The notes beneath the pieces are model-generated. The model made no database searches and was not told where the DNA came from. It saw nothing but the letters and a program-made list of their open reading frames with translations. The position numbers were made by a program, and so were the translations under genes. DNA of 63,142 nucleotides, counting the filler, from Craspedostauros australis (Eukaryota), in assembly GCA_030167865.1 (NCBI GenBank). It is 17 parts of 17 records of this genome, joined end to end, with 100 filler letters (N's around TTAATTAATTAA, not from the genome) between each part and the next. Parts side by side here need not be neighbours in the genome. Positions count along the whole stretch, not along the records: positions 56,780 to 63,142 come from JALAGF010002320.1; 16 more parts are not named here. One strand, written 5' to 3'. Positions within the stretch are counted from its first letter, which is position 1; each line of letters opens with the position of its first letter. This document shows, one piece after another, positions 27,707 to 63,142 of the stretch.

Positions 27707-30092
27707 TCCCGTGCGTTTGGGCGAGTGGCAAAGCAGAAATGAGATGATCAGCTGAATGGAGTGTTGCGCCTGAGCCGTTGCAATGCCATTGGAGCATTGG
27801 TGTGGCGCTCTCTGTGGTGCAAGGCGACACATGAAATCAAAGATTGGTGATGACGAACACCGCTGTGTGTCGGAAGTTGTTGGTTTGAGTCATGTTTACA
27901 TCCGACTCACAGGAAAAAGATTCGGCATCACATTTGTGGAATGAATCGATGGAGATAAAGTCTAAACGGATAGAGATAGACACAATGGATACGAGCGAGA
28001 AAGAGGGTGGACAAGCCAAGACGTGTGGGGAGCGCACTCCTTGAGATCCCAGCTTTCTCTCTCTCTATCCGTAGACAGGCAGAGAGAGAGAGAGACAAGA
28101 GAAAGTACACCTGTGTTTGTGGCAGCCATTCGACCTCAACCAACATGGAGTTTACCATGAGAGCATGACCAGGATACGGTGTGATCAGCAGACCGATGGT
28201 TAGCACACGAGAGTGACAGAGTGGAGACGGAGTCGTCGACATCTGGGAGGATAACATTCCTCTACTCCTCCACACCAAGCCATCTGACGTGGAATCCTCC
28301 ACAACTCCGGTACTCACGCATCCAAGAACAACCTGTTGCAGGCAGCAGGTTTGTTCCCAACCTGACTTCTGTTCTCGCAGATGTTGTCACGCTCTTGCCT
28401 TGTTGATGTCCTCGTTTTGGACTTCGTCATTCTGCGTTGTTGTTGGCGAACCCACGACTTGACCGATGTTCCACGTCAACACGTGACTCGTTTGATCAAC
28501 GGTTGCTTCGCCGTGCGACGGTCTAAGATGATAAAGATAGAAGTGGGAGAAGCATGATGATGAAATTGGACAACAGCTCTCTGCGAATCGAAGAAGCGCA
28601 ACCCTCTGATGCGAGAATGCACAAAGTCGGTACTAGTCGTAGTGTCGAGGGTGTTTCTTCTTTGCATTCGCAAGTGTGAGTTCCTTTCCTCTTGGGCTGA
28701 TCCTTTCGCTTTCGCTTCATCTCCGTGCGACTCGAACACTGAAACTGCACGAACCGAAGCCGTGGATGAAGAGGAAAACGAGCGCAGTTTCGAGCATTGG
28801 TTGGACCTGCACGGGCACTGGTCGCATTCTGGTTTCCAAGCAGCGACGTCCGTTGCAGAACGATGCACACAAGTGCTTCCACCAATGCTCTAACGCACTG
28901 TGCGGATGTTAGAGGCATGGGCGATCGCGTGGTGCTGGTTTCTCCTCTGGTCGCGATCAGAAGTGTGAAAGTCCGCACTCTTCCGAAAGGAACTCACACA
29001 ATAGACAAACTTCGAACTATCCGACGGATGTTTCTCTTCTCGGATGCGATGGCACCGCGGTCTTTCTTTCCCTTCGCTCTCTTTTTGGGTCTGATGGGCG
29101 GAATCTTGGATGGCGTCGGCTGAAGGTTTGGGTTTGGCCTCTCCTTTGGTGTTGGCGTCCTTGGTCGTGTTGATAGCTCGTATCCCCTTGAACCATGTTA
29201 CGAGCCATCATGGCTACCATTAGACCAGTGTAGAAGCATGGTAGCTGCAGGTTGGAGCGCCTTTCTTGCGTGGTGATGTGGTCGATGATGAGGTCGATGA
29301 TGGGGTTGGTGATGAGGTTGATGACGGGAAGAGAAGACCTCGTTGGCGTGATTCGTGGATGAGAAGCGGAAAGAGGACTCAAAATGGATCCGTTTGCCGA
29401 ACAGTTTGTCGTTCAACATGGATGCGTCACACTTCGGGAAGATTGGCGGGAATACCATCTGATTCGCCAGACTAATTGTTCGGCGCAGAGTTTATCGAGA
29501 CCTCGCAGCGTTTCTATTGGCCAACCAATCACGGGGGAATCTGCGTTGTGCAACCACCCATCAAAACGAACGGCAGATCTGGCGTGTGACGCGGTGCACG
29601 GAATCAAAGGGTTGGAAGAACTTCCACCCAAACAAAAAAACGCCTTCTGCGAGAGGAAGCAGACGAGCAAGAGAACAGAACTTGCGCTCACCACATTTCT
29701 CTTCATGAACGCATGCGAGAACGCAGTGGTTGGTTGAGGGAGACCATTCGGCTTCCACACACACAAAGAAGAGCGTGAAGGAGAGAACACGTAAAATGGA
29801 ACCCTGTCACAAAGACTGCCATCCCAACCGCACAAATCACCGAAACTACAGAAACAGACGCGTCACAAAACCGAGCCCGACAAACACAAACTGATCCGAT
29901 GACACCAACATCATCATCACAATTGCCATCGCTACCGCCATCACCGTCGCCATCGCCATCGCCATCAAACTCCCAGAGACATCAGTGACAGCAGTGACAA
30001 CAGCAATCAACGCTACGAATCCGACCCCACGTTTCATAGCTCGTAATCGCACGACCCTTCATCATCACCGTCACATCATCGCCATCGCCATC

Positions 30093-31325
30093 ATGTTAGT
30101 CCAGACGCACAGCAGCGGAACTGCGGCATCCAACGCAGCCGTAACATCAACAACAACATTATCACATTCGCACACGCAAATACGCTCACAACACGAACCC
30201 ACCATGCAGAGCTGTTCAGCGGATTCCGTCATGAACAGCGCCGTGGCTGGGTACGTTGCCGGCGTGACCGGTGTGGTGCTTGGCCATCCCCTCGATTCGG
30301 CCAAGGTTTGGCTGCAAACCAACTCGCAAGGCAAGAACAAGCATCTCCAAGCAGCGACAACTTGTGGCACAAAAATGACCCAAGCCCACTCCATGGCCAC
30401 AACCGCCAGCGCTCACCACAGCCCCACATCGAACCTGACGAATTGGCCGTTACGCTCCGCACCACGCAGCCAGGTCGCCAACATGAGCACGCTGGCACGG
30501 GGCCCGCAGCCCGCGCTGCCGCTGCCAACACCCACAACCTCCATCCACAACTCGCTGCGGACGATCCGCGCGCTCTACTCCGGCATCGGAGGGCCCCTCA
30601 TCACCGTGGGCATCGTGCAGAGCATCAACTTCATCTCCTACGACTCCACCAGGAGGATACTGCATCGTCTCGACAATCCCAACGCAGCGCAGACAGACTA
30701 CCTCCACAACGACTCGATCAAGAACGTGGCCACAGCTGGATTCGTTACGGGCGGCGCATTGGCATTCGTCACGGCGCCGCTGGTCAAGATCAAGACGAAG
30801 CAGCAGATCACCGGCAACAGCTTCCGCGAGGTGCTGCGCGAGGCTCTGCGTCCCGCCGGTCCACGCACGACATCCAGGATATCGTACTTCTTCTCCGGCT
30901 TCGCTCCTCACTTCGTCTCCGAATCCTTCGGACGAGCAGCCTACTACGCCACCTACGAGCAACTCAAACGATCGTGGGTCCAGCACAAGCGTCAGCAACA
31001 CTACGGCACCAGCACAGCCGGCGACTGCGACACCACAACCCTGCGAATCCAGGAACGCATGCTGTGCGCCGCGGTGTCCGGCATCACTTGCTGGGCGATG
31101 ATCTTTCCATTCGACTCCATCCGCAGCCGCATGATGAACCAGAGCAACATCTCCTCGGAGCAGCGCACGACCTTGCAGATGGTGCGCAGCGTGTACAACG
31201 AGAACGGACGCTCCATTCGAATATTCTATCGCGGATTCGGGCTGACGGTGTTGCGCGCCGGCCCTGTGGCGGCCACCGTCCTGCCGATCTACGACTACGT
31301 TCTCGAGACCTTGCAGTCACGATGA
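30093..31325 (+). CDS. Mitochondrial carrier (SLC25) family protein
   Basis: Three carrier repeats with PLDSAK, PLVKIK and PFDSIR signatures, plus the terminal FYRGFGLTVLRAGP. Start codon uncertain. Confidence 0.92.
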   Translation: MLVQTHSSGTAASNAAVTSTTTLSHSHTQIRSQHEPTMQSCSADSVMNSAVAGYVAGVTGVVLGHPLDSAKVWLQTNSQGKNKHLQAATTCGTKMTQAHSMATTASAHHSPTSNLTNWPLRSAPRSQVANMSTLARGPQPALPLPTPTTSIHNSLRTIRALYSGIGGPLITVGIVQSINFISYDSTRRILHRLDNPNAAQTDYLHNDSIKNVATAGFVTGGALAFVTAPLVKIKTKQQITGNSFREVLREALRPAGPRTTSRISYFFSGFAPHFVSESFGRAAYYATYEQLKRSWVQHKRQQHYGTSTAGDCDTTTLRIQERMLCAAVSGITCWAMIFPFDSIRSRMMNQSNISSEQRTTLQMVRSVYNENGRSIRIFYRGFGLTVLRAGPVAATVLPIYDYVLETLQSR

Positions 31326-42939: not shown

Positions 42940-43655
42940 TCTGGAGCCTGGTGGTTGATTGCAACAGTGTATGGGTTTGTTGCTGTTCCATCTTCCTTCC
43001 GCGCGAACAAGGAATGGAAGGTGTCATCACTTGGACGAGCGCTGGAGGAGTTGTTGTCCTCGTCGCTCATGGATGACTCAGTGGATGCGCTCGATGCAGA
43101 CCCAACACGATCTGGGAGTTCGATCTCTGCCTTTGGAGGCTTGGTTTGTGGACTCCCGAAGATACCAAGTGGTTTGGCGAGGCCATCAGAGCTGAGCTTC
43201 ATGTTTGTTGTTGGTGTTGTTGGTGCTGTTGGCTGCGAATAGGCAGGGTGGACATGCAGTGTGTGAGGTGATGACACACGAGTCGGTGCAAAACGAACGA
43301 AGGGTGGCTGTAGTGAGAGATCACTCGCGCGGCCACACAAATCGTCAACACACGGATGGGTGCCCTGATGATGTGCCAATTCAACCAGAGATCCTGGGCC
43401 TGGTGCAATGCCGTTTTGTCGGAGAAATTTGAAGTAGCTTTTGATGCTGCGCTTCTTCAGATTTCCAAATGCCCGCCTGCTGAAGGCACGAAGCTCATCA
43501 CCGCGTTTACCAAACATAGCTGGCTGATTGTCGCAGATGTCTGTCGCGAACCTGATCTGGCTTCGTGCCTTGCCTGAACGCTCGACAGCAGAGGCAATCT
43601 GCAGAGATAGAGACTTACTCGTGCTTGGGAGATTGTCGACGGTGTGCATTTGCAT
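42940..43655 (-). CDS. N-terminal part of an ORF-B-like putative transposon accessory protein (copy/allele 1)
   Basis: Overlaps 45830-46533 as the reverse complement and supplies the start MQMHTVDNL. Confidence 0.7.
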
Positions 43656-44384
43656 TGTTCGTAGATTGTGAGCCGATGGTGGTTGTTCGAAGAGTGTGAA
43701 CACAAGTGTTGCGATGGCGTTGTATTTGCCTGATGCGACGCCGTAGAAGCACTACTCTATATTGGTACGCACAACACAGCATTGTCTTACTCCATTGAGC
43801 AGCTCGGTCTGTTTCTCTTTCAGATGTTTGGCGGCGTACGAATGATCAGCGCGGTCTCAAGCATGGATGCGCGCCAACATACAAATTGTCTGCAGCCGCA
43901 AAGTCTGGAGAGAGCAATGATGCTACAATCAGATGCATAGTATGTAGATAGATGCCTTGCTTTGTTGCACACATTGCGGTTGATTCTGTGCCGATGCTTG
44001 CGAAGAGCTCTTGCATTTTCGAACGTTGTGCGCACTACGTTGCACCATGTGAGCCTCTAGTTTGTAGCCTGTCCGGCACGAAATTCAAACACGACTCGGT
44101 AAAAACGGTCACAACATCGCCAGCCGGCCGTTCTATGCTGATTTGTGTAGCAGAAGAGGCCTGTGGGAACTATTTCAACGAACAACAACTGCAGCAACCA
44201 GCCCAGCGTGCGAAAGCAATGACAGTACTAGTAGATATAAGGCGGGGTGTATGAGTGTGTTCATTTCTCGTGCCGTTCTTGATGNNNNNNNNNNNNNNNN
44301 NNNNNNNNNNNNNNNNNNNNNNNNNNNNTTAATTAATTAANNNNNNNNNNNNNNNNNNNNNNNNNNNNNNNNNNNNNNNNNNNN

Positions 44385-45100
44385 TCTGGAGCCTGGTGGT
44401 TGATTGCAACAGTGTATGGGTTTGTTGCTGTTCCATCTTCCTTCCGCGCGAACAAGGAATGGAAGGTGTCATCACTTGGACGAGCGCTGGAGGAGTTGTT
44501 GTCCTCGTCGCTCATGGATGACTCAGTGGATGCGCTCGATGCAGACCCAACACGATCTGGGAGTTCGATCTCTGCCTTTGGAGGCTTGGTTTGTGGACTC
44601 CCGAAGATACCAAGTGGTTTGGCGAGGCCATCAGAGCTGAGCTTCATGTTTGTTGTTGGTGTTGTTGGTGCTGTTGGCTGCGAATAGGCAGGGTGGACAT
44701 GCAGTGTGTGAGGTGATGACACACGAGTCGGTGCAAAACGAACGAAGGGTGGCTGTAGTGAGAGATCACTCGCGCGGCCACACAAATCGTCAACACACGG
44801 ATGGGTGCCCTGATGATGTGCCAATTCAACCAGAGATCCTGGGCCTGGTGCAATGCCGTTTTGTCGGAGAAATTTGAAGTAGCTTTTGATGCTGCGCTTC
44901 TTCAGATTTCCAAATGCCCGCCTGCTGAAGGCACGAAGCTCATCACCGCGTTTACCAAACATAGCTGGCTGATTGTCGCAGATGTCTGTCGCGAACCTGA
45001 TCTGGCTTCGTGCCTTGCCTGAACGCTCGACAGCAGAGGCAATCTGCAGAGATAGAGACTTACTCGTGCTTGGGAGATTGTCGACGGTCTGCATTTGCAT
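44385..45100 (-). CDS. N-terminal part of an ORF-B-like putative transposon accessory protein (copy/allele 2)
   Basis: Contig 44385-45729 equals 42940-44284 apart from about 5 substitutions. Confidence 0.7.
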
Positions 45101-45829
45101 TGTTCGTAGATTGTGAGCCGATGGTGGTTGTTCGAAGAGTCTGAACACAAGTGTTGCGATGGCGTTGTATTTGCCTGATGCGACGCCATAGAAGCACTAC
45201 TCTATATTGATACGCACAACACAACATTGTCTTACTCCATTGAGCAGCTCGGTCTGTTTCTCTTTCAGATGTTTGGCGGCGTACGAATGATCAGCGCGGT
45301 CTCAAGCATGGATGCGCGCCAACATACAAATTGTCTGCAGCCGCAAAGTCTGGAGAGAGCAATGATGCTACAATCAGATGCATAGTATGTAGATAGATGC
45401 CTTGCTTTGTTGCACACATTGCGGTTGATTCTGTGCCGATGCTTGCGAAGAGCTCTTGCATTTTCGAACGTTGTGCGCACTACGTTGCACCATGTGAGCC
45501 TCTAGTTTGTAGCCTGTCCGGCACGAAATTCAAACACGACTCGGTAAAAACGGTCACAACATCGCCAGCCGGCCGTTCTATGCTGATTTGTGTAGCAGAA
45601 GAGGCCTGTGGGAACTATTTCAACGAACAACAACTGCAGCAACCAGCCCAGCGTGCGAAAGCAATGACAGTACTAGTAGATATAAGGCGGGGTGTATGAG
45701 TGTGTTCATTTCTCGTGCCGTTCTTGATGNNNNNNNNNNNNNNNNNNNNNNNNNNNNNNNNNNNNNNNNNNNNTTAATTAATTAANNNNNNNNNNNNNNN
45801 NNNNNNNNNNNNNNNNNNNNNNNNNNNNN

Positions 45830-47092
45830 ACCGTCGACAATCTCCCAAGCACGAGTAAGTCTCTATCTCTGCAGATTGCCTCTGCTGTCGAGCGTTCAGG
45901 CAAGGCACGAAGCCAGATCAGGTTCGCGACAGACATCTGCGACAATCAGCCAGCTATGTTTGGTAAACGCGGTGATGAGCTTCGTGCCTTCAGCAGGCGG
46001 GCATTTGGAAATCTGAAGAAGCGCAGCATCAAAAGCTACTTCAAATTTCTCCGACAAAACGGCATTGCACCAGGCCCAGGATCTCTGGTTGAATTGGCAC
46101 ATCATCAGGGCACCCATCCGTGTGTTGACGATTTGTGTGGCCGCGCGAGTGATCTCTCACTACAGCCACCCTTCGTTCGTTTTGCACCGACTCGTGTGTC
46201 ATCACCTCACACACTGCATGTCCACCCTGCCTATTCGCAGCCAACAGCACCAACAACACCAACAACAAACATGAAGCTCAGCTCTGATGGCCTCGCCAAA
46301 CCACTTGGTATCTTCGGGAGTCCACAAACCAAGCCTCCAAAGGCAGAGATCGAACTCCCAGATCGTGTTGGGTCTGCATCGAGCGCATCCACTGAGTCAT
46401 CCATGAGCGACGAGGACAACAACTCCTCCAGCGCTCGTCCAAGTGATGACACCTTCCATTCCTTGTTCGCGCGGAAGGAAGATGGAACAGCAACAAACCC
46501 ATACACTGTTGCAATCAACCACCAGGCTCCAGAGCGCAATCGCGAATTCCTTGTTGATTTCATCAACGACATCGGTGTCACAAATGGCAACTTTGCAGGC
46601 TTTCATGTCCGTGTTCCTTGCGCCCTGCAGGATGTCAACTTGTGGAGTGCCGAGATCCCCACTCACATTCCTGGCATTGAGCATCGTTCTCTGATGATCC
46701 GCGGCCCAAGCGTGAACGCCTGGATGTGTCGTGACGAGGCATTTTACTGCCACGACGAAGCCGCAGGAACAGCACAGACCGCCCTCTCTGCCACTGTCGC
46801 GAAAGTCCAAGCCTCTCCGGTTCGCAAGTTCTCTTTCTGGTTGTTGATCTTTCCGTCTGACATCAGCCTCGATCTCGCTTTGACCACCAAACACGGTGAC
46901 AACGCGGTTGAGACCAACTGTTCTGTGCGTGACATGGTGGTCACCGAAGGTGATCAAGCGTTCACGATCCATGGTGCGGTTGCGTACTGGAAGCTCGTGT
47001 TGGCAGGTGGTCGTGTGACGCACCAACCAGAGAAGAAGAACGTTGGCTTCTACTTGAGCAGATTGACCGCGAAAGGTGATGAAGCGGCTTAA
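45830..47092 (+). CDS. ORF-B-like protein, homologous by motifs to 58655-59756; 5' end on neighbouring contigs
   Basis: Long open frame with colinear motifs CD......GK.G...R...R.....L.K, F....(I/V)R, D....A.I, P....L and W(K/R)(L/V).(L/I)AG. Confidence 0.75.
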   Translation, partial: TVDNLPSTSKSLSLQIASAVERSGKARSQIRFATDICDNQPAMFGKRGDELRAFSRRAFGNLKKRSIKSYFKFLRQNGIAPGPGSLVELAHHQGTHPCVDDLCGRASDLSLQPPFVRFAPTRVSSPHTLHVHPAYSQPTAPTTPTTNMKLSSDGLAKPLGIFGSPQTKPPKAEIELPDRVGSASSASTESSMSDEDNNSSSARPSDDTFHSLFARKEDGTATNPYTVAINHQAPERNREFLVDFINDIGVTNGNFAGFHVRVPCALQDVNLWSAEIPTHIPGIEHRSLMIRGPSVNAWMCRDEAFYCHDEAAGTAQTALSATVAKVQASPVRKFSFWLLIFPSDISLDLALTTKHGDNAVETNCSVRDMVVTEGDQAFTIHGAVAYWKLVLAGGRVTHQPEKKNVGFYLSRLTAKGDEAA

Positions 47093-47450
47093 CCTGGCGA
47101 AGTCACGACACGGACAGAACAATCACGGCAACTCGCAGCATAACACAAAAACTATTTAGGTACCTTGTACAACGCACACCAACAAGTCTTGCGCCTTCTC
47201 GTTTCCCTCTTCGTTATTGTCACAGTCGCGCAATGATAAAACCTGTCGACCTCCACGAAAACGAACAAACGGTATTGGGCTCTACTTAACATGTACATGA
47301 TTGAGACGTGTGGTGCTTTGCAGGATAAGTAACTTGACTAGAGCATGTGGCTTGTGAATGCCTTATGTTGGGCTACAGTCGTGTTTCGTTGCAGACACTG
47401 TGACACTAAATTGATGGGTCTGCATGTGTGTCTGTTGGTGCGATTGGAGA

Positions 47451-47870
47451 CTACTTCATCGCCCCGTCATGCTTGATCGGCAAATCACTCTTGTCAACGG
47501 TGCGATACTCCGCGTCATCAAGAGCATGGAGTTTTTCGCCTTCTGTCGTCAACTTTTGGAGGAACAAGCTGTTGATGTGGGGAATGTCATGATCAGAAAA
47601 CACGTTGCACTCGCAAAGCGCACGAGCTAGTTTGTCCATCATTTTATCAATGTCTGGATGCTGTTGCAACACAGCTTCGGCAAGATTGGCGGGTGCCTTG
47701 CGGCGCTTCACGTTGTCCTTGTTCAGCTTGGTCTCCTTCAGTGATCCATCATCCATCTTGACGATCACAGGACGCTGACACTTTGTCGGCTTCTTGTCCA
47801 CATTCACCCAGCCAATGTGACCCTTGTACTTTCCTCCAGTGATGGCGATGAGCTTTCCCTTCGTGCCCAT
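47451..47870 (-). CDS. Small KOW-motif protein (139 aa)
   Basis: ACCATGG start. KGKLIAITGGKYKGHIGWV fits the KOW pattern and is followed by a helical region (AEAVLQQHPDIDKMMDKLARAL). Confidence 0.7.
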   Translation of the reverse strand: MGTKGKLIAITGGKYKGHIGWVNVDKKPTKCQRPVIVKMDDGSLKETKLNKDNVKRRKAPANLAEAVLQQHPDIDKMMDKLARALCECNVFSDHDIPHINSLFLQKLTTEGEKLHALDDAEYRTVDKSDLPIKHDGAMK

Positions 47871-50842
47871 GGTGATGCTGCAATTGATGCTGCTGTTGTT
47901 GTTGTGGTGTTGGTGTTGGTGTTGTGATCTGATGAGTGATGTTGTGGGCTTGTCGTTGGATGTGTTGGTTGATCAATCAGCGAACATCGGAAACGCCAGT
48001 ACCAGCGCTCGCTGTGTTCTCCTTTCTGCCGTGGTGCTTCACGACAACGCAACACGAAACTGTTTCGTCATTTTCGCGTGTCTGGGTCCAGTCGCCAAAT
48101 CACGACCATCATTCACATCGACAAACAAAGCACTCTCATTTTGCGTGAAAATACTTCTTGGTTCTGAGCACATGCCATCACTATTCGCTAACTGGGCCTC
48201 GATCCATGACTGTTGTGTCGCCAAGTCGTTGTGCCGTGTTTGGTGAAGTGCTTGTTGCTGCAGGATTGGTCTCTTCGCGGACGAGATCGTCCCTTCTTGT
48301 GACAGACACGTTGCATGAAGNNNNNNNNNNNNNNNNNNNNNNNNNNNNNNNNNNNNNNNNNNNNTTAATTAATTAANNNNNNNNNNNNNNNNNNNNNNNN
48401 NNNNNNNNNNNNNNNNNNNNGGGTGTGCAGAAGTAAGCGCTTTGCGCTGAACGCCATCATCGACATCATCATCATCTGCAGTGCATCAGGCAGGTCGTCT
48501 ACCACGACAGCCAAACAGCCACACGGCAGATCGATCGCCCCTCTTCCCCTATCTCCCACGATGGAGACACTTTTGGGGGACCAGATTTTATGTAACAGCA
48601 ACGTGACAACGAATTGTACGCAAAGTAAAGCTAAATTAGCAAATGAATACTCCGCAACAACACAGGACGAGAAGCCGTCTCACCATTAGCATGGACCAAC
48701 ATACTCCAACGTGTAATAGTTGCGGCACCAGCAAACGGATCGCTCGGAGAATGTCTGCAATAGTGTGTCCGAGATGTATGCATCCGAAACCTTGTGTTGC
48801 TTTTCACAATTCGCCATGTGGGATTCGCCAACCCTGCCGTCCCAGTTGTACTAGAATGTAACAACCCATCTCTGCTGCATGCGCGTCCATGCCATGAGCA
48901 TCTTCCAGTCTTTGTCACTTCCAGTTTCTGCAACTTCCAACTTTTTCCCAAATCGACAGACGATGCTGCCCGGTTCAGATCAGCTATGATATCTGCCACC
49001 AGGGCTCTTCCCTTCATCATCAATCTGCAACTTCCAAGAATAGGACGATGGCATCAATAGACAGCAACACACCAAAATGTATTCTCTCACTTAGTTACTT
49101 CTGCAAGCGGAGTTGCCTGGAAGGCTAGCAGTCTAAGTACACGGCAAGAACGGCTGCGATTCACGCCGGTAACTGGATACCTACTATATGACGCTAAAGC
49201 CACATGTTGGCATTCATCTGGTGATACGAAGATACTCTCTCCGATGCCATACGACTAGAGCAGAGCGGTACTGAAGCTCGTATCATACCATGCAGAATAC
49301 CATACCATTGAAGCGCGGTCTCCATACTCCTCCAGAGAGAAGAGCATTCTTGCTGATGGCCACAAGTACGAGCAGATACGAGTTCGGATCTGGAATGATG
49401 CATCCTATGAGTACTATTAATAATGTATAACAAAATACATATTGGTCCAAGAGCATTCTACAACTCCACGATGCAGGAAGGTACCGAGCTAANNNNNNNN
49501 NNNNNNNNNNNNNNNNNNNNNNNNNNNNNNNNNNNNTTAATTAATTAANNNNNNNNNNNNNNNNNNNNNNNNNNNNNNNNNNNNNNNNNNNNTCTCTGGG
49601 TAATGAAGGGATAGAGTGTGCATGTGGAGGGAAGGCAGTGTGTGCTGATTGAGACATGGACGAAGCTCAACGTCCCAGGGCATGAACGGCAGCAGAACCG
49701 AGAACAAGGCAGTGTGAAAGTCAAGGCGGGGGTGAAGATCTGGATTACCCACCAACCCACAACTCTGGATTTCGACCACTGATCCACAGCCCAGATGAAG
49801 CATAATCATCACCATGCCTACTGCTACCGCGCAATCCTCAACATCTCTTCGCACCCAACCGCCTTCCCCACGTGAAATGTGAGTCTGTCGATCAAGGACA
49901 CGACTGGACAGCAAGCTGAAGCACGACTGGTGATTCCCAACACAATTTGCCCTTCTGCGTCCGCATGCCTTTCGTTTGTAGTCGTAGATTGATGCGAAAA
50001 ATATAAACTGTTTAACTATAAGGTCCAGGCATCTAATATTTCACACATATACCCTCCACAACATAATAGGATGAAATCTGTCTTCGAATTAAAAATCGGC
50101 ACGAATGTACTATCGTATCCTGAATGGGGTCATAACTGCGGAGAGAAAAAAGAGTCTGTTGATGACGTGGTTGCGAGCGTGCATCACTCGGGAAGGAGCA
50201 TTGGGAATAACAGGAACAGGGTTTACCGCAGCTTTCAACTTAACCCTTTACCGTTAATGACAGTCCCAACTCATGTCCCACAGCACACTCGTCCGAGCGG
50301 AGTAGTACTCTTAACGTCTATAACGTCTAATTAACGTCGTGACACACGGGCTCGGTCTCCCCGTCCGACTCATTGGGGTTTTTGACGTGGTTGTGAACGG
50401 GACGGGACGGGACTGATTGGAGTCTTGCGCTTGTGGTCTCCGTGAACTTTCGGCGAAATTCCCGTGTCTTGCAGACGCATTAGTCGCTGTGAAGATCATG
50501 ACGCATGTATTCGGGTATTTGGTACTAGTGACTTTCTTTATGTGTAATATTGGTACGACTGTGACGCAGCCTTTCTTCCGAAGGGCCTTGCATTGGTACC
50601 GACATGAGAGTAATTGCGCAACTCATCAGAACCACCAGATGTTCTGAAGGATGCATGTACGCAGGGATGGATGTATGTATGCGTGGATTGGAAACATCGA
50701 ACCCCTTTTCGGTGCGCTCCTTTGGCTGGCGTCGGTGATGAACGACGCCTTCGTGAGGCATGCGGCATTTGCTGCGTTGGTCCGGCTGCCTGGTTGTTGC
50801 TTCATGGCATGATGCCAGCAGCCCCCCCGACGTTGTCGTGGT

Positions 50843-53998: not shown

Positions 53999-56429
53999 CT
54001 TGCTGTTGACAGCCGTTCGGCAGAAGTGATTGGAGGCGAAAGGGCGACAGCAACAAGAAACCGTGGAGTTGTGGTGTTGGTGTGAGTGTTGTTATGAGTG
54101 TTGGTGTCATCAATAGCAACAACAATGTTTGATTCTGCTCACCTTGTCTTGTCTTGTTCTGCCTTCGTGAGGACTCCAGTCAGGCTCCGTTCAGCGTTGA
54201 TTCCTTCGGTTGCCTCCGAACAGTGTTGGATCGTGTGCTGTTGTATGCTATCGAGTTGTGCGGTGGCAACAGCCCTGTTCGCTGCCTGCGATGAATCCGT
54301 CTGTGTACGAGTCTGTGTATGTGTCTGTGTGTGCGTGTTTTGTCTCAACGGCTCCGCTAGTGCTCCTCGACCAACCAACACCGCTACGGGGACTGTGTGG
54401 TCTGGAGAAGGCGTGGGTGGTTCTGAAGGTTGAGTGCTGTGGGTAGGGGATGTCGTTGTTGATGCGGATGATAGTGATGATGATGATGACGATGGCTGCG
54501 CTCTCTTGGATGCGTTTGCGAGTGCAGAACAAGGAAGGTCCCAAAAGAGTGATTTACGGGTACGTTCACAGCAGCGCCTTGTTGTTCTTGGTCTCCTCGG
54601 CTTCGTGTCTGTTTGAATCCGTGTGTACGTCTTTGTGCTGTTGCAACTACACGAAGAAGTCTCGCACAACACTCGGGTTTTGCTGCGCTGTCTCTCTTTC
54701 AGTGGTGTCTTCCCCCTTGTTGTTGTGGTGGTGGCAATTCTTACCCATTTTCGGCGGCGCGGGTTTCGGGTTTCGAAGTCCTTCGATGCGAACAGAAGCC
54801 CACGTACAACGATCGTCATTCTGTGTGCTGTCAGAACAAGTTTTGAGGCTGTCTGTGTCACAGTCTGGCCTTTGTCCGTCTGCGTGCACAGACACTCGCG
54901 TCACACTGTGACAACCACCACATTCGAGCACCGACTACCATGACTAACAAATTCGAACCACTGAATGTGCAGATTTAGTGCCAATTCACGAATCTGGCAG
55001 AATCCGAACGATGAGGGTCGATGGACAGACGATGCCGCACAAACCACGAGTAGAGCAACGGCGATGTCCGACTCAATCGACTGTAGCTTTCTTTGTTGAA
55101 TTGTTGAAATGTCCGGGTGCTGTAGACTTGTTGGTAAAAGTAGACTGTTTCTGTTGAGGGTTGGTAACCTTTTCTCTGTCAGTTNNNNNNNNNNNNNNNN
55201 NNNNNNNNNNNNNNNNNNNNNNNNNNNNTTAATTAATTAANNNNNNNNNNNNNNNNNNNNNNNNNNNNNNNNNNNNNNNNNNNNCCAATCCGATTCTGGT
55301 ATTGTCTTTCAAGTCGTAGCGCTTTGATTGATTGTTCCGCAAGTGCGCCATGTCACAGCCAAAAGCAGTAGAGTGTGGCGTTGTGTGGCAGACAACAAAG
55401 GGTTCGTGTGAGGTTGTGTTTCAGGTCGCTGCGCTTTGTCTCGGTCCGTCAAGCTCTGCGCACCACGTCATGTCACCACACAAACAAACACCCATCACAA
55501 AACTCACCATGATGCTTGTTGCAAGTGATATTGCTTTTCGTTCGATCAGTTGGTCTGCAGCTCGTTGCTGCAACTGCACTGCTGTTGCCTCCTCCTTTTA
55601 CTGTTGTTGTTGTTTATACTGATGCTACTGATGGAGTTGATGTCACTGTGGATGGTACTGTGATGTTGATGCTATCCAACTGTTGTGGTAATGATGCAAT
55701 GAGCACGGTCAACACCAACACTGCTGTTGGAGTGTGCTCGTGATTGATGTTGTTGCAAGCTTGCCTGGTGACCCACTGTGCTTGTACGTATCGTGGATCT
55801 AGCTGCTGCTGACGTGATACAGTTGCAGACGATGGTTGCCGCGTTGTCATCTCTTTCGCTCTGTTGGCTCTGATCGGTTGATTGGCCGAGTAGCTCACGA
55901 TCATCACATGTGACTACGAGTACTCGCTGTATTCGACTCTGATCTGCGATACCGTATTGGCGAGCCAACATCGCTGGGCTAGAGCACAGCATACATTCAG
56001 GGATAACTACCATGTCGCCACATGCAGCAGCAACACAACAACGAACAGCTGCATCTGTACCGAACAAGCACTCTCCTCTTGCCATGCCTGTCCACACGAA
56101 TTCGCAGCCTCCCACGGACAGTTGCAACTAATAGAGTATTCAAATTGAAACATAATACAACTATACATACATGCAGAAGAGCATTCGTACAAGGTCTGTT
56201 GTTGCAAGCATGCTTGTGTGCCAGGTCTCGCAGTGTGTGGGATGTCCTGCATGGTGCTGTATTGATGGTTCAGCTGGATTGTGCTTTGCACAGCATCGGG
56301 TGTTGCGAGCGGTGGGTTTTTGGGTGGGCCACATCAAAATGTGGCGTGGATTTGTTGTTGTTCGTGATTTGATGGATTTGTCTCACATGGACAACTGAGA
56401 GGAGGCATGCGAAGGAATCGAGTCATCCA

Positions 56430-56545
56430 CATGGGAAAACGAGCCAGCCGCGTGGGAAAACGAGCCAGCCGCATGGGAAAACGGGCTTGCTCCATGGGAA
56501 AACGAATCGATTCCATGGGAAATCGAGGCTGTCGCATGGGAATTT
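56430..56545. repeat. 21-bp-period array of CATGGGAAA x6
   Basis: Cores start at 56430, 56451, 56472, 56493, 56514 and 56535. Further copies in both orientations run up to the contig end. Confidence 0.92.
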
Positions 56546-56779: not shown

Positions 56780-56805
56780 GCAAGGCACGGGAAATTCGTT
56801 GAAAC
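56780..56805 (+). repeat. Left TIR GCAAGGCACGGGAAATTCGTTGAAAC
   Basis: The reverse complement of 63117-63142 is GCAAGGCACGGGAAAAACGTTGAAAC. Confidence 0.95.
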
Positions 56806-56948
56806 CGTGCCTGGAGAATGGACGTCTGTCCTCCACCCCACCCATGCCGTGTTCGACAGTGTCTCCGATGCGGACAAGTCAAAACCAATTGCAAGATCTT
56901 CATCCATGGAACGTTAAGTAGACGTTATATACGTACTACGAGGTATCT

Positions 56949-57102
56949 CTACTTTCATTGAAAGTAGACTAGTTTCATTGAAAGCGGATTAGTTTCATTG
57001 AACCGAGGTTAGTTTCATTGAACCGAGGTTAGTTTCATTGAACCGAGGTTAGATTCATTGAAACTAGGTTAGTTTCATTGAAAGCGGATTAGTTTCATTG
57101 AA
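56949..57102 (+). repeat. Left subterminal array: 8 units, 20-bp period, core TTAGTTTCATTGAA
   Basis: AGTTTCATTG or a variant at 56951, 56971 ... 57091, separated by variable 6-bp linkers. Confidence 0.97.
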
Positions 57103-57325
57103 TGTTCGCTGAGGTCCAATGATTCGTGTCTTGGCACATGGACCGATTCTGCCACGTTTGGACCTCCATTCTCGCAACGACGAAATCAGGCGCAAAATGA
57201 GCCAAACGTGCTCACAACAACAAATGCTTGCCCATGCTATGTGACACAATCAATATACGTGCCACAATCAGTAGAAGCAGGATTCGAGATACATCCACCA
57301 CAGGACGACTGTTGCTATTGTTATA

Positions 57326-57802
57326 TTAGCGCTTTGCGTTCTGATTGTCCTTTCTGCGTTGCTGCCAATACAAAGACTCGTATTTCGATCGTTTTGCTGC
57401 ATGAAAGTGTTTCCGAAATTGCTCCATAGGGAATTCCTGATAGCATGGCCGCTTTTGGTATAGTTGCTTGGGTGTAAGAGACTTCAAGAGTTCATCTTTG
57501 AAGTCTCTTCTCATCGCGTTCTGAGCTTTGGAACCATCCCATTTCAGCTTGCCTGTTGGCATTGACGTAATTGCCATTTTGCGGAAAGCAATGAGTGCAC
57601 TCTCTGCCTCCATTGCATCCTCCTCGTGCTTCTTCCACTTTTTTCGGAGGCGATTCAAGTTGTTGCGGAAGTTGGTGTACTTCACATTGGAGAAGTCAGC
57701 ATGCCTTTCATAGATTTCCTTGGGCTTCATCTCTTTCGTGATGGCCCCTGCCTTGAGCTCCTCCTCCAATATCTTCTTGGCATCAGACCATGTGAATGGC
57801 AT
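57326..57802 (-). CDS. Transposon accessory ORF-A: 158-aa basic protein made of two tandem helical repeats
   Basis: WSDAKKILEEELKAG..TKEMKPKEIYERHADFSNVKYTNFR is repeated as WDGSKAQNAMRRDFKDELLKSLTPKQLYQKRPCYQEFPMEQFR. The start may lie further upstream. Confidence 0.75.
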   Translation of the reverse strand: MPFTWSDAKKILEEELKAGAITKEMKPKEIYERHADFSNVKYTNFRNNLNRLRKKWKKHEEDAMEAESALIAFRKMAITSMPTGKLKWDGSKAQNAMRRDFKDELLKSLTPKQLYQKRPCYQEFPMEQFRKHFHAAKRSKYESLYWQQRRKDNQNAKR

Positions 57803-58654
57803 CTTGCTTTCTGCGTGACAATGATGCTGCTGATGATGCTGACGATGCTGATGCTGATGCCGATGATGATGCTGGTATCGAACTGTTGCCTTTGCCAATG
57901 CAGTTGCAGGTGTTGCTGCACAGACTGCTGTGAATGCTGGCGTGCAAAGGCTTGCGCACCAATGCCATTGGTGATCGCGATGCTGGAGCTGCTGTTACCT
58001 GGCTGTTGTTGTGTGGCCGTTGCTGCGATTGCGAATGGTGTTCCAGGTGTTGCAGTATGAGCTGACGCAAATTTTTGTGTGCAAATTGATGCTGTTATGA
58101 GTGCAGCTGTGGATGATGTTTCTGATGCTGCTCCAAGTCCGCAGTGCCACAGTGTCGATGTTATAGCTGGCGGACGAGTCACTCCCCTCCCCAGCTTGTG
58201 GCCATCCTCTTCAACTGGGCCAGCAGTGTTGCCACCAGTCTCACTGCCATGGTGTTCTTTGCCGTTGCCTTGGTTGATTCTGTTGCTGGCCGTTCGCGAA
58301 TGATGTGTATTGGTTGATCAATTGATCAATTGTTGGTTACCGTTGCCAGTATTGTTCCCAGTATCGTGTGTGTTAGCCATTGCTGTTGCAGTGATCGTCT
58401 GTTGTTCTGAATTGGTTGTGTTGCGGCTTTGCTTGTCATCGACTGTCGGTGATTGTGTGAGAATTTTGGAGTTCCACGTGTGTCATTGTCCGCGCTCGCA
58501 CGCAAAGTATCGTCCACGATTCGAATTCACGACACCATCCCACAAAGATGTTGACAGTGGCGCAGAAATTTTCGGTCGGTCTTGTGAGTTCGCCCAAATC
58601 ACGAGATGTGGGTTCGCCTTTATTTTGTCGTCACAAAAAGAAGCACAAGCAACC

Positions 58655-60576
58655 ATGAACAAACCAACCACCACCAACACCGCGCCCAGCACTCCGGCTC
58701 AGCGTGCCATCCGCAAACCGCCTTCCTCCCGCTCAAATTTGAAATCGATGGGACCGGAAGTCGACATCGCCATCTTGGACTTCCTCCTTGGTGCAAAACG
58801 CTTCGATAAATTCAAGCTGCACTGCGATCGATTCGAACATCTCCTCGGCAAGCCCGGTTCTGCACAGCGAGACGCTTGCAGACAACGCAAGTACTATCTT
58901 CAGAAGTATCTCGACAAGGCAGGGCTGCAGGCATTGCGCAAGGTGCAGCAGCAGGCAGTGGGTGAGAACGATCCCAATGCACCATGGGCATCAACGCCCA
59001 CTGCCAAATCAAAAACGAAGAGTCTCACAACACCATTAACATCAACATCGGCATCAACCCTCTCACCACAGCGACGACGCAAGATTCTCTTTTCCACCGA
59101 AGCCAAGATGACGACCAACGACGAAACCAGCACCACAATCTCCAACAACGAAGAAGGCGAGCACTACAACATTGATCTCGACCATCCTTTCCATCATGTG
59201 GAGAATACGATGATCTACCAGATGGATGATGTCATCCAGGAGGGCAGATCGTTCGACTGCCTCATCATCCGCAAGCTGTTCGTCGACAAGGATGACATTG
59301 ATCAGATCAAGGCATCCATCTGTGACGAGGGTACCTGCATCAAGATCCAAGAGCCAGCCATCCCATCGTTGATGCTGGAAACCAGCACAGATGCAATGTT
59401 CATGCAGCGAAAGGGAGCTCCTGATGGCAATCTCGCACGTGAGAAGCTCCTTTTCCATAAGCTGGTTAACCGTGAAACCACTAAGGGAGTCGGCTCCAAG
59501 TACACCTACTTCCATTGCCCAGATGGAATGATCCTGAGCGCCAACTTCTTCCAGAATGAAGTCGAGTGCCTCACCAAGACGTACTGTCCAACGCCAAAGG
59601 TGTTGGTCCACAAGGCAACGAATGCCCAGCTCAAGATCCCAACAAATGTGGTGTGCTGGAGAGTTGCAATCGCTGGATTTCATGGCAAGGTCGGGCTGTG
59701 CAACCCCAACACCGAGAACGTCGACGATGCATTCTTTGGGATGCTCTCAAGCACTGGTGAGTAACCATGGAAGTCCCCCAATTCAATTGACTTGTTCGGT
59801 CATGCATTATGATGCAATCACATCTAATCCGCACTACTCTAGAGTACTCACTATCATTTCACCTATCATCTTCTCTCCTTTCGCCATTCTGTGTCCGAGC
59901 AATTGATGATGTAGCAAACCTGACTATCAAAACAGGCGGCGCGGACAAGATGGACGTCGACAGCTCTCCCACCCCGTCCACAGTCCCTTCGAGCAGCAAC
60001 AGCAGCAGCACGCCCCTGCCAGGAACCGGAGTGGCATCCGTGATCGTCCCTCCAAAGATCGACAGAATCTCCGAAGTGGTGAACGCTCCAACCGCTCCAA
60101 AGGCCAACAGCAAGTTTGGAGTGGTGAACACTCCAAGCCCACCACACACTAACCCGACGATCCATGGTGCGAATGCGGGTGAGATGACCTTCCCAGACGC
60201 TCCGGGGTCCGCATTACAAGTCCCTCTCCCTGGTCAAGACGGCTTCGATGGGCTCAACTTTCCGGATGTTCCAGCATCCACGTTGGATACTCCTGCTCCA
60301 AACCAACTTGCCTTGGCCATGGCTGCACCAACACTCGTCCGCGAACCTATTGTTTGTTCTGTTCCTCCCGCTCCTCATACCCTTGTGGTTCGCGGCAACG
60401 ATACCATCATGGGTGATGAAGGGCATCACCTCAAGCGTGCGATTTCGGACATCGGCGTATGCTCACCGAAGAAGTTGAAGCATGCAGAGGATGCCGCTCT
60501 CAATCAATCTACCAAGGAGCAGTCACCCACTGATGACATTGATGAAGATGATCCTCTCAATGCTTACTTCTCTTAG
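58655..60576 (+). CDS. Transposon accessory ORF-B (about 587 aa if spliced 58655-59756 and 59915-60576)
   Basis: ACCATG start. A GTGAGT donor at 59757 and a TAG acceptor at 59912-59914 join in frame to a Pro/Ser-rich second ORF. The unspliced form stops at 59764. Confidence 0.75.
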
Positions 60577-60670
60577 ATATCACAATACCGATACACAGGA
60601 GTCATAAGTTTCATGAAACTACCAACACACACGAGTGCTCTAATAAGTTGAAGAGTATGTCAGTATTTAC

Positions 60671-62561
60671 TTAAATTTCGAATATAGGATGACCACTATC
60701 TAATTCATACTGTATCAACACACAGCAGGCTTCGAAGACACACTGATGTTTGCCAAGATCGTTTCTATAATCGTGGACAAGAGCCTTGAAGTTCTTGATC
60801 CTCCCATTGAAGCTCTCGTGTCGAGCTCTTGCCCTGTTCTTGAATTTCTTCACCGCAGCAGAGTCCATCGGGTTTGGTGCACTGATGGTCGGCTCGTTTT
60901 GATAGCCACCATCAGCAATGACCATTCCTCCTGGTGGAAGTTTGCTCTTGAGGCCATCAGGTTTGCGATACATCACCAAGTCTGATGTAGAAGCAGGGAA
61001 GGGACCATTGATCCAGACAAGCTTGCTGTCTGCTAGTGAGATTCCAAGCTCATAGGTGAGCCCTGCCGAGTGGGACTTGTGGCTATACCACTTCGTCCCG
61101 GGGTCTGTTCTGGGTTCATGAATCTTGATATGGACGCCGTCAACGCTGATGAGGAAGTGCTTGTCGTCCGCGGTGAGTTTCATATTGTGTGGAGGCCAAA
61201 TGACCTGAGAGAAGGAAATAAAAAGAAACGAAGTGCAACAGAAGATTGTGTCAGGATAGAATATGAAGCAAAGTGGCATCGCAGTGTGCACAGTGGCTTA
61301 CCTTTCTTGGAAGCAAGGCTTGGATTGCTGGTAAATATGACCAGATGAGAGACCGAATTGTCTTCTCATCCAAGCCCCAACGCCCTGCCATGGCATGCTC
61401 CGTACTGTAGGCTTTGAGCCAGTTCAGAACAACGAATGTATCATATGGGCGAGGGTGATTGACTTTGTGTGCTGTCTCAATATTGAATAGATCAATAAAG
61501 AGACAGCCAAAGCTCTCTGGACTCAAACCGTACATCGCTGAAAATCGATTCTGTCTGGTCCGTTCTGCCATTCTGGTTTGTCGGAAGCCAGCATATTGCA
61601 ACCCAAGCTCCAGAATATCATCGCTTGACAAGAAGTCAATTTCAGTTGTGTTGTTGGATGCTTCGTTGTGGGGTGGCTGATTGATGAATCGATCATTTTG
61701 TTGATTGCCTTGGCTGATACCTTGGTTGGTTGGTTGCCTTGCAGGCCTTCCCCTTCGTTGCATATTTGGTTGATTGGCTGCATCGGTTGGTTGATTGGGT
61801 TGGCTGGTTGCTCGGTTGGTTGGTCGCTTCGCTGGCCTGCTCCTCGGCTGCGTGCTTTTCTGGTTGCCTGTATCGGTTGGTTGATTGGGTTGGCTGGTTG
61901 CTCGGTTGGTCGTTCGCTTCACTGGCCTGCTCCTTGGCTGCGCGCTTTTCTGGTTGCCTGTATCGGTTGGTTGATTGGGTTGGCTGGTTGCTCGGTTGGT
62001 TGGTTGCCTCACAGGCCTCCCCCTTCGTTTCATATTTGGTTGATTGCCTGTATCGGTTGGTTGGTTGGCTGCCTTGCTGGTCAGTTGGTTGGTTGGTTGC
62101 CTTGCAGTCCTTCCCCTTCGTTGCATATTTGGTTGATTGCTTGTATCGGTTGGTTGATTGGGTTGGCTGGTTGCTCGGTTGGTTGGCTGCTTCACTGGCC
62201 TGCTCCTCGGCTGCGTGCTTTTCTGGTTGCCTGTATTGGTTGGTTGATTGGGTTGGCTGGTTGCTCGGTTGGATGGCTGCTTCACTGGCCTGCTCCTCGG
62301 CCGTGCGCCTTTCTGGTTGCCTGTATCGGTTGGTTGATTGGTTGCCTTGCTGGTTGCTCGGCTGGTTGGCTGCTTCACTGGCCTGCTCCTCGGCTGCGCG
62401 CTTTTCTGGTTGCCTGTATCGGTTGGTTGATTGGTTGCCTTGCTGGTTGCTCGGTTGGACAGTCGCCTCACAGGCTTGCTCTTCTGCTCCATTCTTGACT
62501 GATTGCCTTCACTGGTAGTTTGGTTGATCAGTTGCTTTGCTGGTCTGCCTCTGCATTGCAT
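60671..62561 (-). CDS. DDE_Tnp_4-type transposase (about 597 aa); exons 62561-61302 and 61204-60671
   Basis: HTH-like LNWLKAYSTEHAMAGRWGLDEKTIR; a 97-bp phase-0 GTAAGC...TCAG intron; catalytic SVDGVH, IADGGY and RARHESFNGRIKNF. No stops. Confidence 0.92.
61705..62480 (-). repeat. Coding tandem repeat, 8 full units of 90/93 bp in the transposase N-terminus
   Basis: Units read QPTDTGNQ(KSAQPRSRP/PNMQRRGRP)...RATSQPN and all are in frame. Confidence 0.92.
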
Positions 62562-62810
62562 GCTTGGCTGATCGTTGTCGTTGTTTGGTTGAATGCGTGG
62601 GCTGGTTCTTGTTCTCCGTCTCCTGTTCGAGTAGTCGGCTGCGAAGCGGAGTGATGTGACGGGGATGGCGAGTGCTTGGCTGCGTGTTGATGTTCATCAT
62701 GTTGTCATTGTTTTGGAACAGTGATTCATTGCGTTCCGTTGCAGTGGATGACGTTGAGTCTTGACACGATTTTCTGAGTCTTGTTTTCCTCATTCAGTCT
62801 TGGTCCAGCA

Positions 62811-62964
62811 TTAGTTTCATTGAGACGTCATTAGTTTCATTGAGACATCATTAGTTTCATTGAAACATCATTAGTTTCATTGAAACGTCATTAGTTTCAT
62901 TGAATCGTTATTAGTTTCATTGAATCGCTGTTAGTTTCATTGAATCGCTGTTAGTTTCATTGAA
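62811..62964 (+). repeat. Right subterminal array: 8 units, 20-bp period, core TTAGTTTCATTGA(A/G)
   Basis: TTAGTTTCAT at 62811, 62831 ... 62951. Confidence 0.97.
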
Positions 62965-63116
62965 TCAGTTGACTGTAGTTGGAGTTCGCTTTTTAAAATA
63001 TTGGCGTTAAAGGCGTTATCCTCAAACCAATGAAAACAATCGATTGAGTCGAGCAGCAATATCGATTCAGCTGTTCGCGACAAATGGTCGTAGTAGTCGA
63101 AGACGCTCGAAGTTGT

Positions 63117-63142
63117 GTTTCAACGTTTTTCCCGTGCCTTGC
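63117..63142 (-). repeat. Right TIR
   Basis: Inverted match to 56780-56805. Confidence 0.95.

Follow-up and report, generated by a model that had tools for sequence, protein, structure and literature searches.

Harbinger-type elements are the classic example of DNA transposons that depend on a second protein: in fish Harbinger3 and rice Ping/Pong, a partner protein binds the subterminal repeats and recruits the transposase. These elements belong to the PHIS superfamily of DDE_Tnp_4 transposons, which comprises PIF/Harbinger, ISL2EU, Spy, Pangu and Nuwa (Han et al. 2015, PMC4482050). In Harbinger elements, the transposase is accompanied by a second, DNA-binding protein (PMC4482050). Here we describe a related element in a 63-kb stretch of DNA from Craspedostauros australis, the whole of which we call the window. 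The last piece of the window, a single contig of 6,363 bp (56780-63142), carries three open genes, encoding a transposase (minus strand) and two accessory proteins, designated by their open reading frames (ORFs) as ORF-A (minus strand) and ORF-B (plus strand). The gene order is T> <B A>, where T stands for the transposase and arrowheads give the direction. In our assessment, the contig is likely to be an intact, autonomous copy of a diatom three-gene PIF/Harbinger (PHIS) lineage, in which ORF-A takes the place of the Myb/SANT partner and ORF-B represents a conserved third component. Whereas its transposase and cut-and-paste logic are of a familiar kind, its accessory pair is not, and neither is the size of the ORF-A family or the possible component with a crystallin/CS fold.

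The element possesses both features of the PHIS superfamily, a DDE_Tnp_4 core with intact D, D and E residues and a coding region bounded by terminal inverted repeats (TIRs). It resembles PIF/Harbinger elements in its DDE_Tnp_4-type transposase, its short TIRs starting with G, its subterminal repeated sites and a small helical partner protein, presumably able to bind DNA, that has a gene of its own (PMC4482050). It differs from them in that this partner has no match to a Myb/SANT profile, in that there is a third conserved gene, ORF-B, and in that the transposase carries nine AT-hook-like repeats. Moreover, the PIF/Harbinger group is defined by a TWA target-site duplication (PMC4482050), whereas families related to the window element show C followed by A or T (C-W) before their ends. 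A CWG duplication defines the NuwaI group, which has been reported from animals only (PMC4482050). C-W before the terminal G in all six candidate ends of related families would fit CWG, a pattern noticed post hoc in a set of ends of which two are verified. On the other hand, NuwaI elements have a Myb/SANT partner, animal hosts and TIRs usually starting with GGG (PMC4482050), whereas the window TIR starts with GCAAGG (or CAAGG), no Myb/SANT match is found in the window element and its host is diatom-like. Pangu shares a second ORF without a known motif and has one heterokont host listed, but it is a two-ORF element with an ANT duplication (PMC4482050), and the flanks of the window relatives (TCT, CCA, TCA) are not ANT. 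ISL2EU and Spy share the related DDE core. However, ISL2EU encodes a YqaJ exonuclease in a separate ORF and a THAP domain in its transposase, neither of which was found by Pfam in the ORFs of the window element, and Spy has a single transposase ORF with no accessory gene, compared with three conserved genes here. Harbinger-like elements have been noted in Thalassiosira (PMC2806351, PMC3145265), whereas another diatom, Phaeodactylum, reportedly has none (PMC3145265). In the literature searched, which did not extend to Repbase, Dfam or the supplementary tables of PMC4482050, we found no description of a three-gene Harbinger in diatoms or of these accessory proteins.

The original prediction, made on this DNA from the sequence alone, had proposed a distinct multi-gene lineage and had suggested looking for ORF-A and ORF-B homologues beside this transposase clade in diatom genomes. 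Such homologues do accompany the clade in independent metagenomic loci, and this co-occurrence supports the proposed lineage. Our sample consisted of 80 metagenomic loci (L numbers below) encoding transposase relatives 40-55% identical to that of the window. Of these, 24 have an ORF-A-like gene and 22 an ORF-B-like gene, and 13 loci contain both. As in the window, ORF-A and ORF-B are arranged head to head in 11 loci of this last set, where the matched parts are 340-610 bp apart. Another 11 loci have ORF-A without ORF-B, most of them cut off by the contig end. Among the 13 loci of at least 6 kb, ORF-A is found in 11, ORF-B in 11 and both in nine, and not a single one lacks both genes. Three arrangements occur, T> <A B>, T> <B A> and <B A> T>; that of the window, T> <B A>, is also seen in L061, L062 and L079. 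The usual position of ORF-A is tail to tail directly behind the transposase, while in L065 and L067 it lies directly upstream of the transposase on the same strand. In L066, all three genes are enclosed by 47-nt TIRs (87% complementary). The transposase cores of L065 and L067 are 79% identical, with a ratio of nonsynonymous to synonymous substitution rates (dN/dS) of 0.05; the amino-acid identity of ORF-A is 55% and that of ORF-B 53%, with synonymous sites saturated, hence no dN/dS for these two genes. Since residues have been kept despite saturated synonymous sites, ORF-A and ORF-B are constrained, yet they evolve faster than the transposase.

The window is made up of 21 assembly pieces joined via N-runs around the linker TTAATTAATTAA, and the element fills exactly the last of them. 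It had been read in the original prediction as a contig running from TIR to TIR, as a complete PIF/Harbinger-related element with three intact genes and as containing an uninterrupted spliced DDE transposase. All of these points were borne out. The inverted repeat of 26 nt, complementary at 24 of 26 positions (92%), is located at the exact contig ends, such that the contig starts with GCAAGGCACGGGAAATTCGTTGAAAC and ends with the reverse complement of GCAAGGCACGGGAAAAACGTTGAAAC; the DDE_Tnp_4 element between these repeats has all three genes intact; and the transposase has two open exons, a GT..AG intron and an intact D, D, E triad. The features of the element are as follows.

56780..56805, plus strand: left terminal inverted repeat, GCAAGGCACGGGAAATTCGTTGAAAC
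56950..57102, plus strand: left subterminal array of eight 20-bp units with TAGTTTCATTGAA as their core
57326..57898, minus strand: ORF-A, likely start ATG at 57802, 158 aa
57803..58654, no strand: spacer between the divergent ORF-A and ORF-B, which are paired head to head in relatives
58655..59756, plus strand: ORF-B exon 1, 367 aa
59757..59899, plus strand: predicted ORF-B intron, GT..AG, 143 nt, phase 1, from sequence reading only
59900..60576, plus strand: predicted second exon of ORF-B, which encodes an acidic tail and the conserved short motif TIMGDEGHHLKRA
60671..61204, minus strand: transposase exon 2, DDE_Tnp_4 catalytic domain (D22, D98 and E130 of the exon)
61205..61301, minus strand: predicted transposase intron, GT..AG, 97 nt
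61302..62561, minus strand: transposase exon 1, 420 aa, with 30-aa repeats and a conserved helical region
62812..62964, plus strand: right subterminal array of eight 20-bp units, oriented like those of the left array
63117..63142, minus strand: right terminal inverted repeat, at the contig end

The spacer between ORF-A and ORF-B is presumed to be a shared promoter region. As for the suggested youth and possible activity of the element, the sole hints are that its reading frames are intact and that the contig terminates exactly at the two ends.

The transposase is readily assigned. Exon 2 matches Pfam DDE_Tnp_4 (PF13359) with E = 2.4e-15 and 57 bits against a cut-off of 24.8, and its residues D22, D98 and E130 occupy invariant columns in an alignment of 28 sequences. 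Exon 1 (62561-61302) and exon 2 (61204-60671) are separated by the 97-nt intron, and the resulting junction, ...IQALLPRK|VIW..., matches intron-less relatives, which read uninterruptedly IQxLKxxK-IxW. In the four closest gene models (P0001, P0002, P0003 and P0007), the reading frame continues through an insertion located exactly at this junction. Both observations support the predicted splice. Residues 1-290 of exon 1 consist of nine 30-aa repeats (a 90-nt period at 61700-62508), each of which contains R[GS]R[PT], with RGRP or RGRT in four and RSRP in five. No Pfam match covers these repeats, which, on account of the RGRP core, we take to be AT-hook-like. The remainder of exon 1 (residues ~297-420) is a helical region conserved in more than 60 related loci and matched by no Pfam model. 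Among proteins longer than 310 residues, 87 relatives were found at E <= 0.001, the best being 57% identical, and all those with a named organism come from diatoms: Nitzschia inconspicua, Nitzschia sp. Nitz4 and Pseudo-nitzschia pungens. The P. pungens relative is a complete MMETSP transcript, and thus at least one transposase relative is transcribed. Sequence and profile searches of the PDB with the transposase gave nothing meaningful, that is, no relative with a solved structure.

ORF-A is built from a three-helix unit that occurs twice in tandem (W..S.AK..L..D...). Translation from its first ATG, at 57802, yields MPFTWSDAKK..., the point at which the homologues start as well; upstream of this ATG, the frame is His/Gln-rich and begins on TTG. 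A word-index protein search with ORF-A returned nothing and the ESM Atlas had no usable match. Using tblastn, we obtained matches in the fetched metagenomic loci down to E = 3e-23, and a hidden Markov model (HMM) based on a 14-member alignment (A2) matched the 24 loci mentioned above, including 13 of the 18 that have at least 3 kb downstream of the transposase. The same HMM had no match in the other 57 kb of the window. When run against 1.84 billion representative proteins, the ORF-A profile matched 3,314 clusters at E <= 1e-3, of which 2,270 remained at E <= 1e-10 and 656 at E <= 1e-30. Ten of these clusters were looked up: six are described only as 'hypothetical protein' or 'predicted transcriptional regulator' and four are nameless. 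Pfam gave no match for the window ORF-A at E <= 1, nor did any of 16 longer family members match Myb/SANT, MADF or another DNA-binding Pfam model at E <= 0.001. The accessory proteins had been described as unassigned and as lacking recognizable Myb/SANT or YqaJ motifs. At the level of profiles this description stands, as neither the ORF-A nor the ORF-B family matches either of these and no Pfam model fits them. They are not orphans, though, given the 3,314 clusters of the ORF-A family and the recurrence of ORF-B beside ORF-A.

Structure prediction offers some clues as to what ORF-A might be. The AlphaFold2 model built on A2 (mean predicted local distance difference test score, pLDDT, of 88.7) shows two units of three helices each. 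Compared by hhalign, its halves prove homologous to one another (probability 97.8, E = 1e-12), which points to an internal duplication. A Foldseek search of the PDB found nothing at E <= 0.001, the only rows being homeodomain and POU structures with E > 6, and PDB sequence and profile searches yielded nothing meaningful. In a fold search independent of Foldseek, the second unit was aligned with a homeodomain, Chd1 SANT-SLIDE, DNAJC2 SANT, ARR1 and the LUX Myb-like domain, and the first unit with FF domains, in both cases with Z of 5-6.3. Each unit also has an aromatic ladder over ~40 residues (W5...Y32...F45 and W88...Y114...F127), which we liken to that of a Myb repeat, a reading that is our own and partly draws on general knowledge. 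As the predicted fold consists of two homeodomain/SANT-like three-helix units, ORF-A may correspond to the Myb/SANT partner in a very divergent form and not be an unrelated protein.

The ORF-A family also displays considerable variation. N. inconspicua gene models have an ORF-A-type unit fused to the N-terminal side of the transposase (hhalign probability 99.3); in P0057, P0058, P0061 and P0065, it is annotated as the transposase N-terminus. The fusion is either real or a merged model of two adjacent same-strand genes, arranged as in L065 and L067. One family member (L054:2095-2880) has two CCHC zinc knuckles in an extra N-terminal part, and long RGG/GRG-rich tails and extra N-terminal parts were seen in other homologues (L032:1016-1840, L036:1091-1891, L027:2846-3691). 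In some other families, an RG-rich tail is found on the transposase instead of on ORF-A. The closest relative of the window element, L001, has the same three genes, and its ORF-A (L001:2865-3700) is broken by a stop codon and a frameshift, indicating that decayed copies of the lineage exist.

ORF-B proved more elusive. With exon 1, the word-index protein search found nothing and the ESM Atlas gave no usable match. The window ORF-B at first matched L001 alone, at a site adjoining the ORF-A of that locus and divergent from it; further homologues were reached with pieces of L001 as stepping stones. The resulting alignment of 23 rows (A3) revealed two conserved modules, and HMMs of these modules matched the 22 loci reported above. 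The N-module (residues ~34-102) is predicted to be helical and winged-helix-like, and the C-module (residues ~169-340), preceded by a disordered linker, to be a beta-sandwich with a helical insertion at residues 238-274. The predicted intron (59757-59899) joins ORF-B in frame to exon 2, which ends at 60576. The short motif of this predicted exon, TIMGDEGHHLKRA, is kept in five loci (the window and, as variants, L001, L047, L079 and L007), and in L001, L047 and L079 it is located just downstream of the ORF-B-like gene. Judging from the sequence, this stretch is predicted to be either a spliced exon of ORF-B or a small separate gene.

None of the 23 ORF-B rows matched Pfam at E <= 1, HSP20 and CS profiles included, and sequence and profile searches of the PDB disclosed no relative. 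The structural model has a mean pLDDT of 71.5, with residues 34-102 and 169-340 being confident. Of the top 50 VIA-align rows, 33 by our count are alpha-crystallin/HSP20 or CS domains placed on the C-module, the CS-type matches including Sgt1, Shq1, PIH1D1, NudC and USP19; their Z scores of 5.2-7.0 are under the tool's caution line of 8. The alignments extend over nearly the full domain; the best covers 80 of 87 residues with an rmsd of 2.4 A (Z 7.0), and another covers 83 of 92 with 2.9 A (Z 6.7). About 13 further rows place PadR/MarR-type winged-helix domains or Reb1 Myb-like repeats on the N-module, with Z of 5.1-6.9. In its predicted fold, the C-module resembles HSP20/alpha-crystallin and CS domains (p23, Sgt1, Shq1, NudC), which are beta-sandwiches of seven to eight strands, and it differs from them in the lack of a profile match (0/23), the helical insertion and Z scores below 8. 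The rows agree strikingly with one another, but since every Z is below 8 we regard the folds as likely and do not infer homology. On the basis of the model, ORF-B is then likely to combine a winged-helix-like N-module with a small-heat-shock/CS-like beta-sandwich. To our knowledge, no other eukaryotic DNA transposon has been reported to encode a protein with a crystallin/CS fold, although no search aimed at this point was made. We also considered whether the N-module might be a copy of an ORF-A unit, which was ruled out by an hhalign probability under 1%.

A second, divergent ORF-B-like gene that has both modules (E = 2e-9 for the C-module HMM) is carried by three overlapping pieces elsewhere in the window (42940-44284, 44385-45729 and 45830-48320). 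Two of these pieces are 99.6% identical, and each of the two shares 704 identical bases with the third. These overlapping variants point to another ORF-B-bearing repeat, in at least two copies in the same genome. Neither a transposase nor ORF-A was detected on the pieces that carry it.

At the ends of the element, both the 26-nt TIR and the arrays greatly exceed what chance would produce. With at most one mismatch, TAGTTTCATTGAA matches the whole window 17 times, compared with 0.14 matches expected, and all 17 are within the element. Eight copies form the array at 56950-57102 and eight that at 62812-62964, spaced at exactly 20 bp and all on the plus strand; the 17th is an overlapping minus-strand match at 57054. 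The arrays are placed symmetrically, 170 and 178 bp from the ends, and yet they are direct repeats of each other. Accordingly, the eight units that had been predicted near each end are there, but the two arrays are not mirrored, with 16 of 16 copies in direct orientation. The arms of the array core, TTTCA-T-TGAAA, are palindromic, so that a dimeric binder would meet much the same site either way. In each TIR, the inner part, TTCGTTGAAAC, is a near copy of the array unit. Arrays of 15-20 bp upstream of the transposase are also found in the closest relatives L001, L002 and L006, the unit in L001, TTTTGCTGAAAC, resembling TTTCATTGAAAC of the window. L003 and L004 belong to a related family, of which they are two copies that share 98.8% identity across 2.1 kb but have unrelated flanks. 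Their agreement begins exactly at GCAACGCCCGGGAGA, which matches the first 15 bases of the window element at 12 positions, and this identifies the first base of the contig as the true element terminus. Sequences like GCAACGCCCGGGAGA occur at the expected distance from the transposase in L002, L006, L016 and L071.

Two further arrays were observed. In L006 (4122-5736), palindromic arrays of 20-22 bp (TTGCGGCAGGCTGCCGCAAT) flank the transposase gene on both sides, and a candidate end lies ~480 bp behind the transposase; this locus is possibly a short transposase-only derivative. Within the window, 5-7 tandem 21-nt units, CATGGGAAAACGAGCCAGCCG-like, are located at 56409-56542 near the end of a small contig (piece 55285-56679), and may be the subterminal array of another element.

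How might the three proteins work together? A second DNA-binding protein accompanies Harbinger transposases, and ORF-A would fill that role here. By analogy, its tandem three-helix units would bind the repeated subterminal sites, the units of which are spaced two helical turns apart, and bring the transposase to the ends. The nine AT-hook-like repeats of the transposase might add a hold on the A/T-rich TTTCATTGAAA sites. ORF-B would most likely be an architectural or assembly factor, contacting DNA through its winged-helix-like head, while its beta-sandwich could allow it to oligomerize on the ends, to bridge them or to serve as a chaperone adaptor. Excision and integration would then follow the ordinary DDE cut-and-paste route.

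Several observations weigh against a conserved three-gene system with ORF-A as the partner. Neither accessory gene was found in 47 of the 80 loci, mostly contigs under 3 kb. The HMMs were built from the very loci in which they were counted: 13 of the 24 loci matched by the ORF-A HMM supplied its sequences and 11 are new, whereas for ORF-B 18 of the 22 contributed and only 4 are new. The pair is not head to head in L059 and L066, and the order of ORF-A and ORF-B relative to the transposase varies, which would also fit a cassette moving between elements. None of the 14 ORF-A members matched Myb/SANT, MADF or any other DNA-binding Pfam model at E <= 1. The fold matches of ORF-A, as well as those of both ORF-B modules, have Z below 8, a range that, according to the tool's warning, may reflect a common arrangement, and Foldseek found no match for the ORF-B model in the PDB at E <= 0.001.

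Even if all three genes are components of one system, the roles of the accessory proteins could be swapped, with ORF-B acting as the end-binding factor via its winged-helix-like head and ORF-A serving in nuclear import, chromatin targeting or counter-silencing. Helix-turn-helix-like modules are present in each of the two proteins, the RGG-rich tails or CCHC zinc knuckles of some ORF-A relatives would suit RNA or chromatin contacts, and other relatives carry an RG-rich tail on the transposase. Nevertheless, it is ORF-A that is the partner in compact two-gene, tail-to-tail arrangements behind the transposase (L030, L032, L014, L036 and L053), it is ORF-A that is fused to the transposase in the N. 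inconspicua gene models, and its position is that of the DNA-binding partner in classical Harbingers (PMC4482050). We therefore consider such a swap unlikely.

Alternatively, this might be an ordinary two-gene Harbinger made up of the transposase and ORF-A, in which ORF-B is a passenger, a captured host gene or part of a nested element, with no role in transposition. The lack of a profile match for ORF-B, its varying order relative to the transposase, the loci with ORF-A alone and the separate ORF-B-like gene on other window contigs, beside which no transposase or ORF-A was detected, would all agree with this. However, a passenger is hard to reconcile with the head-to-head pairing with ORF-A in 11 of 13 two-gene loci across transposases 40-55% identical to the window's, with the location of ORF-B inside the TIRs both in the window and in L066, or with the 53% amino-acid identity that it has kept where synonymous sites are saturated; moreover, most of the loci with ORF-A alone are truncated by the contig end. 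A mere passenger thus seems quite improbable. That the contig is a dead relic or a collapsed or chimeric assembly product, looking intact yet immobile, as the very fragmented assembly (21 pieces in 63 kb) and the stop codon and frameshift in ORF-A of L001 might suggest, is highly improbable in view of the three open genes with canonical splice sites and an intact DDE triad, the matched TIRs with equal arrays at both ends and a T> <B A> order shared with L061, L062 and L079, which a chimera would not reproduce.

In all six candidate ends of related families (L002, L003, L004, L006, L016 and L071), the terminal G is preceded by C and then A or T; two of these ends are verified (L003 and L004), four were picked by motif, and the C-W pattern was noticed post hoc. 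The flanks before these ends are TCT, CCA or TCA, and TAA or TTA is seen in none of the six, at odds with the classical Harbinger TWA. Read from the sequence, these flanks would fit CWG as the target, the assembler having retained the shared G and C at the ends of the contig. In L066, CAG precedes GGCGAACC at both ends, and the flanks there are ambiguous: left and right read CAG and CTG, respectively, but ATG and ATT should the CAG be part of the TIR. The window contig stops at the TIRs and has no flanks. None of the related loci yielded a copy in which both flanks are present and the duplication is clean; a left end was not found for L006, nor were right ends for L002, L004, L016 and L071. 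Because the pattern is post hoc, four of six ends are motif-picked and there is no clean duplication, we file the element under the PHIS superfamily only.

A bolder picture, which we put forward only tentatively, is that of a widespread diatom Harbinger branch that inserts at CWG and employs a three-protein machine: the transposase, a tandem three-helix DNA-binder that replaced or diverged from Myb/SANT, and a winged-helix plus HSP/CS factor that bridges the ends or recruits chaperones. If this three-protein CWG reading is true, the ORF-A family would be transposon-borne. This would give a likely origin, as transposon cargo, to a large nameless family (3,314 clusters, with 0 of 30 scanned members matching Pfam), whose proteins are currently annotated in diatoms and marine metagenomes as 'hypothetical' or 'predicted transcriptional regulator'. 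If Harbinger-type transposons can have a conserved third gene, and a partner that falls outside the Myb/SANT profiles, the picture of how they use accessory proteins would widen, and an ecologically dominant algal group would offer a testable three-component system. In addition, as an intact copy that has defined ends and putative binding-site arrays, the element might serve as the basis for developing a gene-transfer tool in diatoms.

Finally, the pieces of the window are joined artificially, and the context neighbouring the element thus does not reflect physical linkage. No further copy of the element, its transposase or ORF-A was found in the other 20 pieces. Other pieces contain host genes, among them those for a mitochondrial carrier (29895-31322), a RING finger protein (24857-26053) and a ZZ finger protein (15444-17873). 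The presence of such ordinary eukaryotic genes indicates that the window comes from a fragmented nuclear assembly and not from a repeat library.

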